DNA from: Desulfomicrobium sp.
GTDB lineage: Bacteria; Desulfobacterota; Desulfovibrionia; Desulfovibrionales; Desulfomicrobiaceae
Direction: 5' to 3'
DNA length: 64,000 bases
Assembly: GCA_040768745.1 (NCBI GenBank)
Contig: JAXGMI010000001.1
Location: 1-64,000, forward strand
Of the stretch, positions 3,001 to 6,000 are shown one piece after another (position 1 is the first letter of the stretch; each line of letters begins with the position of its first letter). Position numbers: made by a program.

Positions 3001-6000
3001 CGGGTCATCGAGGGGACGCATCCGTACGTTCCTGCCGACATCTTTGCCTGAAGCAGCCTCATCCTGATCCGGCCAAGCCCCTGTGCATTGTCACCGGCCG
3101 CCGCTGGCCGGACCGTCACCCCTGGCGATAAAGCCTCGCCCCCAAGGCATGGTCTTCCAGGCGCAGGCCCATGCGGGCCAGCTCATGGCGCAGGCTGTCG
3201 GCCAGGGAGAAGTCCTTGGATCTGCGGGCTTCCTCCCGGCGGAGGACCAGGTCACGGGCCTCTGCTGGCCAATCCCTGGGCGCCAGGGGCAGGCGGGACT
3301 GATCCAGAAAACCGAGCACGCGGTCGCAGGCCATGAGCTGTTCGCCCACAGCCTCGGCCTCAGCCGCACTCAGCCTTCCGGCCTTGGCGTTGACGCTCTT
3401 GGCGAAAGAGAAAAGACGCGGCCAGAAGTGGGCCAGGTCCAGATTGTCATCCAGGGCCGAGGCGAATGCGGTCTTCAGGTCATAGATGGCCTGCTCCAGT
3501 TCCGGGGCGATGCCGCCCTTGCCCCCGCCAAGGCTGGCCGCGTTGCCGGCGTCCTGCAGACGATGCTGGTTTTTGACCCACATGGCCAGACTCTCCGCGG
3601 AAAAGGACAAGGTCTTCTGACAGGATGTGGACAACAGCCACAGACGCAGGGCCGCTCCGCTGCCGGCCAGGACCAGGGCCTCCTTGAGAGACGGAACCTG
3701 GCCACCCGCATGGCGCGGAGCCACCGGCTGCACAATGACCCAGGCCTGGGGTCGCACGCCCGCCCCGGCACTCCAGAGAGCGTTGAAATTGTCCAGATGC
3801 GGAAAGCGGTGGGATTCGCTCCCCAGCATGACGGATACCGAACCAAGGGCATCCAGGGCCGCTGCGGCCAACTGCAGGAACCAGCTCGGCCGGACCTTGC
3901 CCCACTCGGTCTCGACCACGTCCCCCAGCTTCAGATCCTGCAGGGTGACCCGTTTCAGCAGGGTGAAATCCGCAGGATGCTCCTTCACGTAGTCGGCCAG
4001 ATCCACAGTGTGCCCCACGTTCATTCCGGCGAGATCCAGCCCCGACGTCAGGCCGTAGGTTTTGTCCCGGGTCACGTCGAAATAGACCGAGCGCAGCTTT
4101 TCATAGGCCTGCCCCCGGGCCAGCAGCTTGCGGGCCAGACCAAGAGCCCGGTCCTGGCTGGCATTGGCCAGGGCGAAAAGCGTCGCCTCCGACACCCCCA
4201 GCCTGCGGGCGTGGACCGTCACCGTGGTTAGGGCCTGGGCCCCGAATTCAGCCAGGCCCGAACCGGCTTCCCTGGCCGCGGCCAGGGTCCGATCGTCCAT
4301 GTCGGCCAAGCCAACGGCCATGCGGACCTTCTGTCCCCGCTCGGCCAGGGCCCTGCCCAGCACGTCCATCCAGACGATGCGCCGCCATGCTTCCAGGTCG
4401 CCCAGTTCATCCAGGCTGGGACCCGGAGTGAACAGGGCATGTCCGCCGGGCGGAGCGGTGAGGACTTCCACTTTTCCGCTGGCCACGCTGCGCACGCCCA
4501 GGCCGTGCTGTGCGGGCGGAGCAAAAAGGGTGGTCGAAAGATACCGCTCCCCGGTGTCCGGACAGATGAACACGATGAGTCCGTCCTCGCCCTTCCCGTC
4601 CAGTTCGCGGGCGATCTGCAGGGAGGCGGCCAGGGCCGCGCCGGCGCTCATGCCGGTCAGAATCCCTTCCTCCCGGGCCAGTCTGCGCGAGCAGGTGAAC
4701 GCCTCCTCGTCCTCGACGCGGATGATCCTGTTCACGGCATGCTTATCATAAATTCCGGGTGGATAGGATTCCTGCATGTTTTTCAGGCCCTGGATCCTGT
4801 GCCCGGCGTAGGGTTCCACAGCCACCACCCGCACCTGCGGGGCGGACTCCTTCATGCGCTTGGCCAGGCCCATGGCCGTGCCGCTGGTGCCCAGGGTGGC
4901 GACCACATGGGTGACCCGCCCTCCGGTCTGCTCGAGGATCTCCTGTCCTGTCCCCCTGTAGTGGGCCGCAATGCTGGCCGGATTGTTGTACTGATCCATG
5001 AGCACATAGCCGTGCGGCTCCTCCCGGGCCAGACGGTAGGCCTCCTCAATGGCCCCGTCCGTGCCCAGGCGGCCCGGGGTCAGGAGCAGCTCGGCGCCGT
5101 AGGCGCGCATGATCCGCTTGCGCTCCTCCGAGGCCGAGTCCGGCATGACCAGGGTCAGTTTGTAGCCTTTGACCGCGCAGACCATGGCCAACCCCACACC
5201 GGTGTTTCCGCTGGTCGCCTCGATGATGGTCTTGTCCGGCGTCAACTCGCCCGAGGCCTCGGCCGCCTCTATCATGGCCAGGGCCACGCGATCCTTGATG
5301 GAACCGCCCACATTCTTGGCTTCCAGTTTGGCGGCCAGCTTGATGCGGGGGTGCGGAAAAATGCGGTTCAGGAGGACAATGGGGGTGCTCCCCACCAGGC
5401 TGAGAACGGATGAATGGATCATGGAAAAACCCTGCTCGTGGATTGAAAATTCGCGGCCAAACCTAGGTCAAAAGCAGAAGCTGGGCAAGGACGGAAATCC
5501 ATTCCGGCCCTGAAGAAACCCAGGCCCGCAGGATATGACCCGATCGAGAGGGGGCACCACCCGGCTGATCGTGACGGACCCTCCCGGCGGCACCGCGCGG
5601 GGCCGATTCCCGGCCATGGCAGACCCACTGAATGACCCTGGCCGGTGCTCTCGTGCCGGAGTGTTTTTTTTCTACCCCTTCCCGCCAAAATATATTAGCA
5701 ATTCCTCCCATCTGAGGTAATCTTCCCGATTTCATGAACATATTTTTTCAAGGAGTTTTCCATGTCCCTCAAAGTCGTTGTCATCGGAGGTGTCGCCCTG
5801 GGACCCAAAGCCGCATGCCGCATCAAGCGCGTGGCCCCGGATGCGGATGTGACCATGGTGGACGCCAGCAAGCTCATTTCCTATGGCGGATGCGGCATCC
5901 CCTATTATGTTTCCGGAGATGTCAGCGATTACAGACAGTTACAGGAAACAAGCTTCCACATGGTCCGTGACGAGGACTTTTTCAAGGCCTGCAAAGATTT

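Follow-up and report, generated by a model that had tools for sequence, protein, structure and literature searches.

HisZ, a paralogue of histidyl-tRNA synthetase (HisRS), is the regulatory subunit of the ATP phosphoribosyltransferase HisG; it is a separate subunit, belongs to class II, and senses an amino acid. In eukarya, the HisRS-like domain of GCN2 binds many uncharged tRNAs and controls a kinase. The gene described here lies in the first 64,000 nt (the window) of contig JAXGMI010000001.1 of a Desulfomicrobium genome (assembly GCA_040768745.1) and resembles HisZ in that an inactive synthetase paralogue is tied to the enzyme making the cognate amino acid; it differs in that the paralogue is of class I, is fused to that enzyme, and has lost the cysteine/zinc site while keeping the anticodon reader. 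In the Desulfomicrobium lineage the ligand is therefore likely to be a tRNA rather than cysteine. With GCN2 it shares the fusion of a dead synthetase domain to an effector, by which tRNA binding would become a read-out of amino acid supply, but GCN2 is eukaryotic, responds to many uncharged tRNAs, and has a kinase rather than a biosynthetic enzyme as its effector. In all 48 family members aligned, inactive synthetase and effector are joined within one open reading frame and synthetase signatures are lost, the arrangement by which a system of the HisZ or GCN2 type would be recognized.

Canonical cysteinyl-tRNA synthetase (CysRS; E. coli structures 1li5 and 1u0b, and the genome's own copy at C1:126543-127991) has the full-length fold and the anticodon contacts in common with the fusion, but it possesses HIGH, KMSKS, and four zinc ligands; on the NCBIfam cysS model (TIGR00435) the fusion reaches 134 bits against a cut-off of 340, its residues 340-766 aligning to model positions 34-465. 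Two paralogues of CysRS, MshC and CysRS*, are listed in a review, according to which CysRS* is without the anticodon-binding domain (PMC9437257). Both are CysRS-derived and function beyond standard charging, as the fusion would; unlike it they are catalytically active, whereas the fusion combines a dead core with a kept anticodon domain. MshC (3c8z) matches the structural model of the fusion (Z 39.7) over residues 306-707 only, with the C-terminal domain outside the match, and the combination of HIGH, KMSKS, and zinc site expected of an MshC is not found in the fusion.

For the N-terminal half, the nearest described enzyme is CysM of Mycobacterium tuberculosis (Rv1336; PDB 3dki and 3dwg), which has the same short active-site loop and a basic residue at the position of its R220; it is O-phosphoserine-dependent and works without CysE, as the fusion would by its phyletic pattern. 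It is, however, a stand-alone protein of 323 aa, and its basic residue is Arg, against Lys in the fusion. It takes its sulfur from the CysO thiocarboxylate, as the title of the 3dwg entry indicates. Cystathionine beta-synthase, whose catalytic cores match the N-terminal half, is likewise a PLP enzyme of the CysK fold with a C-terminal regulatory domain; its Bateman module is, however, a pair of small-molecule-binding CBS domains and not an RNA-binding synthetase fold.

Architecture of the fusion gene

The gene starts with ATG and encodes 768 aa with no internal stop codon; its parts are listed in Table 1.

Table 1. Parts of the fusion gene, with positions in the window
Feature	Position	Strand	Basis
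Whole fusion gene, 768 codons plus stop	3116..5422	minus	ORF list, translation
CysM-type cysteine synthase half, aa 1-303, PLP fold type II	4514..5422	minus	PALP and cysKM scores
Codon of K43, PLP-binding lysine in GGSIKDR	5294..5296	minus	invariant in 48/48
Codon of K214 in the invariant loop QGLKN	4781..4783	minus	alignment to CysM chains
Linker and diverged N-terminal strand of the CysRS-like half, aa 304-330	4433..4513	minus	pLDDT, family consensus
Degenerate Rossmann and connective-polypeptide part of the CysRS fold, aa 331-600	3623..4432	minus	tRNA-synt_1e, lost signatures
Helical part (stem-contact/DALR-like) of the CysRS fold, aa 601-715	3278..3622	minus	CysRS alignment, structural match
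Anticodon-binding domain, aa 716-768, with R729, R733, F738, D742, R745, D757	3119..3277	minus	CysRS alignment

The survey's finding of a complete cysteine synthase joined to a full-length CysRS homologue was borne out: the NCBIfam model cysKM (TIGR01136) is passed with 361.2 bits (cut-off 344.15), and E. coli CysRS (1li5) matches over its full length with an E value of 7e-27, the CysRS fold occupying aa ~318-768. The narrower models are both missed (cysM with 342 against 394 bits, cysK with 320 against 351). Pfam finds PALP at residues 8-287 (3.1e-70) and tRNA-synt_1e at 332-559 (1.8e-22; 80.6 bits), while CysS_C at 717-757 (8e-4; 19.9 bits) stays under the 23-bit cut-off; DALR_2 is found in other members of the family, not in the Desulfomicrobium protein. 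The helical part aligns throughout with the CysRS structures 1li5 and 8qhp.

An AlphaFold2 model of the whole protein (mean pLDDT 91.5, pTM 0.79) and its structural matches agree that the CysRS-like half folds confidently as a complete CysRS: chain 8qhp_B matches with Z 42.4 over model residues 306-712, and the alignment to CysRS of Borrelia burgdorferi (3sp1_B) covers residues 305-767. These CysRS matches came from the VIA wide search; Foldseek with the whole model had only CysK-type chains among the matches listed, all places being taken up by matches to the N-terminal half. The pLDDT is 83-95 in the anticodon-binding domain and dips to 72-80 in the linker region, where the CysRS N-terminus seen in the family consensus ('L.FYNTL.R.KE.F.P') is absent from the Desulfomicrobium fusion. 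Prediction of a complex between the halves (1-303 and 318-768) gave scores of 0.33, 0.22, and 0.31 around a mark of 0.32. Contigs of four metatranscriptome runs from one anaerobic-digester study span the gene with at least 99% identity (5406-5622 is uncovered in three of them); DNA is possible in such libraries, and the contigs give neither level, strand, nor ends.

The cysteine synthase half

In enzymes of the CysK/CysM family, the glycine loop binds phosphate, the asparagine loop [TS]SGNTG binds the free alpha-carboxylate, and a serine contacts the pyridine nitrogen. The Desulfomicrobium fusion contains all the motifs for PLP, substrate, phosphate, and pyridine nitrogen (GGSIKDR with K43, EATSGNTG, GTSGT, and GMSAGAA), and across the 48 members they are kept as GGS[IV]KDR, [TS]SGNTG, GT[STC]GT, and GMSxGAA, those for PLP and substrate being invariant or nearly so. 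K43, the PLP-carrying lysine of this enzyme family, is present in 48 of 48 and aligns to the Schiff-base lysine motif of solved CysK and CysM chains. Of 48,161 chains compared, M. tuberculosis CysM (3dki_A) is the best structural match of this half (Z 43.7, rmsd 1.5 Å over 302 residues, 40% identity). The active-site loop has the short CysM length; it aligns without gap to E. coli CysM (2bhs), while the CysK chains need a gap of seven residues. Within it, G212, L213, K214, and N215 are invariant in all 48 fusions, and K214 falls on R210 of E. coli CysM and, again without gap, on R220 of M. tuberculosis CysM (chains 3dwg, 3dki, and 3dwi). Arg220 is said to serve the substrate phosphate (Agren and colleagues reportedly described this in 2008); the fusions have an invariant Lys there, not an Arg. 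With a dN/dS of 0.04-0.14 for this half, the kept motifs make it very probable that the fusion is an active cysteine synthase.

Loss of synthetase catalysis and retention of the anticodon reader

Compared to E. coli CysRS 1li5 and to the genome's own enzyme, the fusion has P for the zinc ligand C28, DLEA (aa 342-345) for HIGH, 'LQLAAA' without a Cys in the region of C209, and F for E238. KMSKS is absent; which residues stand opposite it varies with the alignment because the region is gapped. H234 (in FPH) is kept; the loss of HIGH and KMSKS that had been claimed is real, while that of the zinc site extends to three of the four ligands and not to all. Canonical HxGH or KMSKS occurs in none of the 48 fusion members and in all six canonical CysRS compared. 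Judged from these residues, aminoacylation by the fusion protein can very probably be discounted, and recognition of cysteine by the Desulfomicrobium fusion, which had been offered as an option, is unlikely because the zinc site is lost.

The anticodon reader has fared differently. Fusion residues R729, R733, F738, D742, R745, and D757 correspond to R423, R427, W432, D436, R439, and D451 of E. coli CysRS; R729, D742, R745, and D757 are each kept in 48 of 48 fusions, position 733 is R in 45 and K in 3, and position 738 is always aromatic (29 W, 15 F, 4 Y). R427, D436, W432, and R423 are the residues contacting G34 in E. coli CysRS according to one article (PMC12684709), and R439 is given as a target for anticodon switching in another (PMC13449415). 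The Desulfomicrobium genome has one ordinary tRNA-Cys(GCA), with U73. Its fusion has lost eight of the 76 C-terminal-half positions that are conserved at ≥90% family-wide, and three of the lost ones (Y601, R602, and D660) are kept in canonical CysRS as well; its affinity for tRNA may therefore be weaker than that of its relatives. On balance the CysRS-like half probably binds tRNA(Cys). With the G34 contacts kept in the whole alignment, the catalytic signatures gone, and the half under purifying selection, the part of the survey's finding that saw in it a tRNA(Cys)-recognition module is supported.

A graded family

At least 7993 homologues (E ≤ 1e-10) were found among 8000 candidates scored. 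The best 120 of them all combine PF00291 and PF01406 and are 663-834 aa long; the CysRS domain is full-length in every member seen. In a tree the fusion family forms a clade apart from the six canonical CysRS of the phylum (support 1.0), along which the catalytic signatures decay in steps: zinc site and KMSRS persist in members that branch off deep, while the Desulfomicrobium fusion, on the longest branch, is among the most decayed. The description as a degenerate CysRS thus suits only part of the family, since 20 of the 48 members keep all four zinc ligands, six have KMSRS, and some relatives exceed the cysS cut-off with 409-457 bits (top score 456.8). The conserved blocks reported earlier (YEKL, RSVYFD, DFTLLKR, FPH) reappear in the 48-sequence alignment at 94-100% (A439/Y440 100%, E441/K442 94%, S445 98%, Y447/F448 100%, D485/F486/L488/K490/R491 100%, F540/P541 100%, H542 98%), and R347, R348, Y478, K490, R491, and G500 are invariant residues specific to the family. 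The data do not establish that the fusion is peculiar to sulfide-flooded sulfate reducers; its carriers belong to many families of the phylum, and an Atlas cluster with a mostly Myxococcota label offers a lead only.

The fusion is undescribed in the full-text literature searched (subscription journals and database notes lay outside), and the available portions of PMC2922099, PMC9437257, PMC11580382, and PMC5389517 do not mention it. The graded family, the kept anticodon reader, the frequent role as sole synthase, and the lack of any convincing case in which the fusion replaces CysRS are newly seen here.

Other cysteine genes in carrier genomes

A normal CysRS (540.7 bits) and a CysK (C2:191473-192366; 443.7 bits) do occur elsewhere in the Desulfomicrobium genome, as had been stated, and a CysE-like gene (167.8 bits, cut-off 210) adjoins that CysK; the fusion is therefore not needed as the only route to cysteine in this organism. 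Its casting as an accessory beside a normal CysK fails for the family: in 71 of 150 carrier genomes listed it is the sole cysKM match (E ≤ 1e-40), a result that a search of four closed genomes (G039, G106, G112, G383) at E ≤ 1e-10 confirmed. A CysE match (E ≤ 1e-25) is absent from 68 of these 71 carriers and present in 74 of the 79 with a second cysKM match, a contrast which overstates the number of evolutionary events because the carriers, being related, are not independent of one another (the cross-table was counted by hand, with at most five candidates scored per genome for cysKM). In five genomes no CysE score exceeded 44 bits, where the cut-off is 210. By this phyletic evidence, the fusion is predicted to be a primary, CysE-independent cysteine synthase, and since serine acetyltransferase is not required, O-phosphoserine and sulfide are its most likely substrates; use of O-phosphoserine is thus rather probable, although genomes without CysE could form O-acetylserine via an unrelated acetyltransferase.

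A separate, higher-scoring CysRS accompanies the fusion in 137 of 150 carriers (E ≤ 1e-150) and in three of the four remaining cases checked. The only candidate for a fusion serving as sole CysRS, G158, is a draft genome of 210 contigs and 95% completeness, and a normal CysRS is present in its congener G352; the gap is probably one of assembly, and no convincing case of replacement was found.

Gene neighbourhood

Comparison of the ORFs within 8 kb on each side of 21 loci, all against all, recovered only shadows of the fusion gene itself, which confirms that it has no conserved neighbour; a CysO-like neighbour was not seen. Nor is the CoA-disulfide-reductase/rhodanese gene at 5762-7480, which is divergent to the fusion, a conserved neighbour. 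Four to five related loci share a local synteny of thymidylate kinase, an HD/OB protein, and LptD, which is functionally unrelated. A promoter scan did not find a consensus site; a promoter-like element about 40 nt upstream of the start is conserved in close relatives, so the leader can only be short, and no leader conservation was seen apart from this element. Rfam gave no match in positions 1-9000 of the window apart from a chance hit elsewhere (E 0.25). Thus, neither a conserved neighbour nor a leader RNA or Rfam element at the fusion supports a regulatory circuit.

Proposed function and alternatives

The reading that accounts best for these data, with a probability of about 0.5, is that of an active CysM-type synthase to which a non-catalytic module for binding tRNA(Cys) is attached, the favoured, if speculative, role of this module being regulation. 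The PLP half would form aminoacrylate from an activated serine and add sulfide to yield cysteine; the C-terminal two thirds, a CysRS paralogue, would neither activate cysteine nor charge tRNA but hold tRNA(Cys) by the intact anticodon domain, and the state of the tRNA(Cys) pool would set the output of the PLP half, by the logic of HisZ with HisG or of the HisRS-like domain of GCN2. That the CysRS-like half regulates the synthase at all is, by this analogy, a speculative proposal, its direction included; more tentative still is the specific version in which the pseudo-CysRS reads charged versus uncharged tRNA(Cys) and switches the attached O-phosphoserine sulfhydrylase.

The strongest competitor, though an unlikely one, is a structural relic or scaffold which binds no RNA and is needed only for folding, solubility, or oligomer assembly of the synthase. 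The progressive decay of catalytic signatures toward the long Desulfomicrobium branch, the missing neighbour, and a C-terminal half evolving two to four times faster than the N-terminal one would all fit such a remnant. With the active site drifting, however, a pure scaffold would not be expected to preserve precisely the anticodon contacts in all 48 members; the domain is full-length throughout, and the dN/dS of 0.15-0.25 for the C-terminal half indicates purifying selection.

Considerably less probable is a hand-off to translation, in which the dead half docks tRNA(Cys) or a CysRS-tRNA complex and reactive cysteine is used locally, without allostery. The retained anticodon-reading residues and the nearly constant company of a separate CysRS agree with it, as do the deep members with zinc/cysteine site and KMSRS, which look as if an ancestor had both made and activated cysteine; but one tRNA cannot sit on two synthetase anticodon domains simultaneously, and neither contact with CysRS nor a channel is in evidence.

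Nothing in these data favours the transfer of (per)sulfide to an RNA or protein acceptor that the survey's finding had proposed as its second option. Very improbable, too, is the related idea of chemistry on a substrate bound to RNA or protein (an aminoacyl-tRNA, a tRNA base, or a persulfide acceptor) and held by the C-terminal half, even though a beta-replacement enzyme is here joined to a tRNA-binding fold and enzymes of the CysK family take many nucleophiles. None of the 48 members departs from the alpha-carboxylate loop [TS]SGNTG, which suggests a free amino acid as substrate, and where the fusion is the only synthase homologue (71 of 150 carriers) it must supply free cysteine. Conversion of phosphoserine on tRNA was rejected: no match to SepRS or SepCysS (TIGR00470, TIGR02539) was over cut-off in G000, G039, G106, G112, and G383 (best scores 29.8 and 37.8 bits), and without SepRS these five genomes have no phosphoseryl-tRNA to act on. 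Slightly less credible again is binding of an mRNA element that imitates the anticodon arm of tRNA(Cys) for translational autoregulation, as by ThrRS with its own operator; the retained anticodon-reading residues would allow it, but the short, otherwise unconserved leader and the lack of an Rfam match in positions 1-9000 speak against it. The weakest proposal, a bifunctional enzyme still charging tRNA(Cys) through unusual motifs, can draw on the full-length fold and on the relatives above the cysS cut-off but hardly survives the missing HIGH and KMSKS, the single zinc ligand out of four, and the low cysS score of the Desulfomicrobium protein, the absence of canonical HxGH and KMSKS from the whole alignment, and the draft state of the lone genome that appeared to do without CysRS.

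Implications

The fusion is present in thousands of genomes from sulfate reducers and related organisms, where its annotation goes no further than 'cysteine synthase' or 'cysteinyl-tRNA synthetase'. About half of the sampled carriers appear to have no other route to cysteine and lack CysE, and pathway reconstructions which require CysE and CysK would miscall such organisms as cysteine auxotrophs. The family displays the stepwise loss of synthetase catalysis with the tRNA reader kept, which opens the idea of a synthetase paralogue as a sensor to direct test with a single protein and a single tRNA, and it suggests that many relatives of the sulfate reducers tie cysteine synthesis to tRNA-Cys. 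If true, control by tRNA would be a new way to match amino acid supply with translation and would stand in for the absent feedback by CysE in organisms living in excess sulfide; the fusion would then be the first biosynthetic enzyme under allosteric control of its cognate tRNA via a dead synthetase of its own, the metabolic equivalent of GCN2 in bacteria.

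The fused protein and its gene

The fusion gene is an open reading frame without an internal stop (see table), whose product joins two recognizable enzyme folds. The N-terminal half matches the PLP-dependent enzymes (PALP, residues 8-287, 3.1e-70 in Pfam) and exceeds the cut-off of the NCBIfam model cysKM (residues 7-300, 361 bits; cut-off 344). Residues 340-766 match positions 34-465 of the 466 in the cysS model, yet score just 134 bits where 340 are required, and align with chain residues 25-456 of E. coli CysRS (1li5; E 7e-27). An AlphaFold2 model built from 48 relatives is confident over the whole length (mean pLDDT 91.5, pTM 0.79). 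Among 48,161 solved chains, the N-terminal half is nearest to M. tuberculosis CysM (3dki_A; Z 43.7, rmsd 1.5 A over 302 residues), and the C-terminal half resembles the CysRS chain 8qhp_B (Z 42.4, model residues 306-712) and that of B. burgdorferi (3sp1_B; Z 38.3, residues 305-767). Residues 702-742 in the anticodon-domain region (window about 3197-3319) also match a 149-residue chain named "ASHI" (9f5x_X, E 3.3e-4); the anticodon domain of the fusion may be shared with a small protein.

Features of the fusion locus and its surroundings
Feature	Position	Strand	Remarks
Overlapping ORF 1, directly downstream of the fusion	2482-3021	-	no Pfam match
Overlapping ORF 2, directly downstream of the fusion	2673-3131	+	no Pfam match
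Fusion ORF	3116-5422	-	768 codons, ATG start
Promoter-like element	5460-5488	-	TTGCCC, 17 nt, TAGGTT; ~40 nt upstream of the fusion start codon
Disulfide oxidoreductase-rhodanese gene	5762-7480	+	divergent from the fusion; Pyr_redox_2 4.8e-64, Rhodanese 1.1e-5
DUF4139/DUF4140 protein	7529-9046	+	
Two adjacent DUF1538 membrane proteins	9628-11096	-	
Na+/H+ exchanger with TrkA domains	11488-13551	-	adjoins the DUF4139/DUF4140 and DUF1538 genes

As the survey's finding had it, the fusion has no conserved gene neighbour: none recurs across 21 loci examined for 8 kb on each side. The divergent gene next to it has the sulfur-related architecture of a CoA-disulfide or persulfide reductase; it is not conserved beside the fusion in the other 20 loci. 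The promoter-like element is kept in three Desulfomicrobium-like loci (L073, L075, L076) and the remainder of the upstream region is not; a consensus promoter scan made no call at this element. Contigs of four RNA libraries from one study cover the fusion gene at 99% identity or more, which is compatible with its expression, short of proof; these contigs continue into the stretch of the two overlapping ORFs.

Loss of the catalytic core

Comparison with E. coli CysRS and with the host genome's own CysRS places P at the position of C28, DLEA where CysRS has HIGH, LQLAAA in the C209 region and F at the position of E238; KMSKS is absent. The survey's description of a cysteine synthase joined to a CysRS fold devoid of signatures stands, with three corrections: the gene lies on the minus strand, not all zinc ligands are lost, since H234 (in "FPH") survives, and KMSKS has no fixed counterpart, as the residues facing it vary with the alignment. 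Elsewhere the genome does encode both a CysRS (540.7 bits) and a CysK (443.7 bits) of the ordinary kind, the latter adjoining a CysE-like gene which scores 167.8 bits, below the cut-off of 210. The single tRNA-Cys(GCA), with U73, lies on host contig C3.

Spread of the family and stepwise decay

The family is large. Among 8000 candidates scored, 7993 proteins reach E<=1e-10, and every one of the best 120 contains the two Pfam domains; public records give them, as previously stated, no name beyond "cysteine synthase" or "cysteinyl-tRNA synthetase". Of 401 genomes evenly sampled from the phylum, 150 listed ones, from many families, have a match over the full length in a single open frame; with 10 further genomes at E<1e-100 outside this list, carriers number at least 150. 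A pattern scan of species-representative genomes gives an estimate of about 2500 stretches, the named records including Desulfomicrobium (closest, 73-79% in the C-terminal half), Desulfovibrionaceae, Desulfohalobiaceae, Desulfarculia, Desulfobacterales (for example, Desulfonema magnum and strain NaphS2), Desulfobaccales and Desulfatiglandales.

In a tree of 48 distinct fusion members, the C-terminal halves form one clade separate from six canonical CysRS of the phylum (support 1.0). Neither HxGH nor KMSKS occurs in any of the 48, both being present in all six canonical enzymes. In deep-branching members all four zinc ligands are intact (20 of 48) and KMSRS is found (6 of 48), and some C-terminal halves still exceed the cysS cut-off (456.8 bits in genome G106, 444.1 in G039, 409.2 in G383). 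The Pfam score for tRNA-synt_1e drops from 339 bits in members of this kind through 213 and 149 to 80.6 in the window's protein, whose lineage has the longest branch of the tree. Because the loss is graded, "degenerate CysRS" is the endpoint of a stepwise process; the label suits the window's protein, as had been proposed, but not the family as a whole.

Several observations concern the edges of this distribution. A cluster of 71 fused proteins in the ESM Atlas (787 aa; PALP, tRNA-synt_1e and DALR_2), most commonly labelled Myxococcota, hints that the fusion extends outside the phylum. A locus labelled as a Methanococcoides MAG (L150, contig JAIORJ010000191.1; 33% identity in the C-terminal half) probably represents bacterial sequence binned in error and not an archaeal gene. 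Within the window's order, one genus (g4) lacks the fusion in each of its 10 sampled genomes (best whole-protein match E~1e-61 or none), and the gene was therefore lost or never gained there; these genomes carry CysK and CysE instead. In genome G170 (L053:6294-10358) the frame is about 565 residues longer upstream (1354 aa in all). This added stretch has no Pfam match and may be either a true extension of the N-terminus or an upstream gene in the same frame; in G099 the open frame is of comparable length, but the ORF counted from the first start is 777 aa. In the closed genome G016 (C1:2736763-2738409) the match does not extend past query residue 551 and lies in a 704-aa open frame, possibly a truncated fusion lacking the helical and anticodon domains; this genome gives two matches to cysS and none to CysE.

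The cysteine synthase half and its relation to CysE

The catalytic motifs of the N-terminal half are invariant or nearly so among the 48 members. Its active-site loop has the length found in CysM and reads QGLKN in all 48, the lysine aligning without gaps with R210 of E. coli CysM and R220 of M. tuberculosis CysM. The latter enzyme depends on O-phosphoserine, and in the 2008 work of Agren et al. its R220 is said to select that substrate. The substrate of the fusion is probably O-phosphoserine too.

The phyletic pattern is a stronger argument for CysE independence than the loop residue. In a hand tally of the 150 listed carriers (cysKM at E<=1e-40, CysE at E<=1e-25; the CysE list re-sums to 266, the search total), the fusion is the sole cysKM match in 71 genomes, of which 3 have CysE and 68 do not, whereas 74 of the 79 genomes with a second cysKM match have CysE and 5 lack it, counts that describe a pattern and carry no statistic because relatives are not independent. 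CysE and CysK, the classical pair, therefore tend to occur in the same genomes, and the fusion is separate from them, being the sole candidate cysteine synthase in nearly half of the carriers. In four closed genomes (G039, G106, G112, G383) the fusion ORF is the only cysKM match even at E<=1e-10, and no CysE was found, the best score being 44 bits against the cut-off of 210.

The N-terminal half has thus often replaced CysK; no convincing takeover of CysRS by the C-terminal half was seen among the carriers, nearly intact C-terminal halves included. A cysS match at E<=1e-150, which beats every fusion C-terminal half scored, is present in 137 of 150. Four of the other 13 were inspected: G145, G264 and G147 encode a CysRS apart from the fusion, and in G158 alone none was found. 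The fusion was rejected as sole CysRS there since this is a 95%-complete draft and the congener G352 has one.

What the C-terminal half retains

Of 76 columns at least 90% conserved in the C-terminal half, the window's protein retains 68. Most informative is the C-terminal domain: R729, R733, F738, D742, R745 and D757 of the fusion correspond to R423, R427, W432, D436, R439 and D451 of E. coli (1li5 alignment). In an excerpt of one study, G34 of tRNA(Cys) forms hydrogen bonds with Arg427 and Asp436 and a stack with Trp432, and shares a water network with Arg423 (PMC12684709); an excerpt of another describes CysRS re-aimed at a different anticodon by changing Arg427, Trp432, Asp436 and Arg439 (PMC13449415). 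Across the 48 fusions, the first position is always R, the second R (45) or K (3), and the third always aromatic (29 W, 15 F, 4 Y); D436, R439 and D451 are matched by D, R and D without exception. Conservation at these positions equals that in the six canonical enzymes. Comparison of four close relatives gives a dN/dS of 0.15-0.25 for the C-terminal half and 0.04-0.14 for the N-terminal half, with dS of 0.5-1.3 and therefore partly saturated. Since the chemistry has been lost while the anticodon reader has been kept under selection, the dead half would most simply be a tRNA(Cys)-binding module.

Other roles are conceivable. That the C-terminal half is a scaffold without a ligand is possible, if doubtful, and it is unlikely that it docks tRNA so that cysteine is used locally. 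Chemistry on an RNA-bound substrate is very improbable, as the carboxylate-binding loop is unchanged and SepRS and SepCysS were not found in the five genomes searched; autoregulation through an mRNA mimic fares slightly worse, there being no Rfam match and the conserved promoter-like element implying a short leader. Residual aminoacylation by the window's protein is hardly credible.

A possible link between tRNA(Cys) and cysteine synthesis

An excerpt of a review of duplicated synthetases names two CysRS paralogues, CysRS* and MshC, and no others (PMC9437257), and the excerpted text of AARS Online mentions no cysteine synthase fusion (PMC11580382). No description of a cysteine synthase-CysRS fusion was found in the open full-text literature, the scope of the search, which did not extend to subscription journals. 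The fusion can be classed as a pseudo-synthetase module joined to the enzyme that makes its cognate amino acid. It is best read as a putative CysE-independent, probably O-phosphoserine-dependent cysteine synthase with a non-catalytic tRNA(Cys)-binding domain.

Cysteine synthesis is usually controlled through feedback inhibition of CysE. Synthetase-like modules that control a joined enzyme have precedents in HisZ with HisG and in the HisRS-like domain of GCN2. By analogy, the tRNA(Cys) pool might regulate the cysteine synthase half, a speculative proposal to which we give a probability of about one in three. The pool would be a natural gauge of cysteine sufficiency, and direct control of the last enzyme could stand in where the CysE feedback step is missing; such control would make sense because that step is missing and these organisms have sulfide in abundance.
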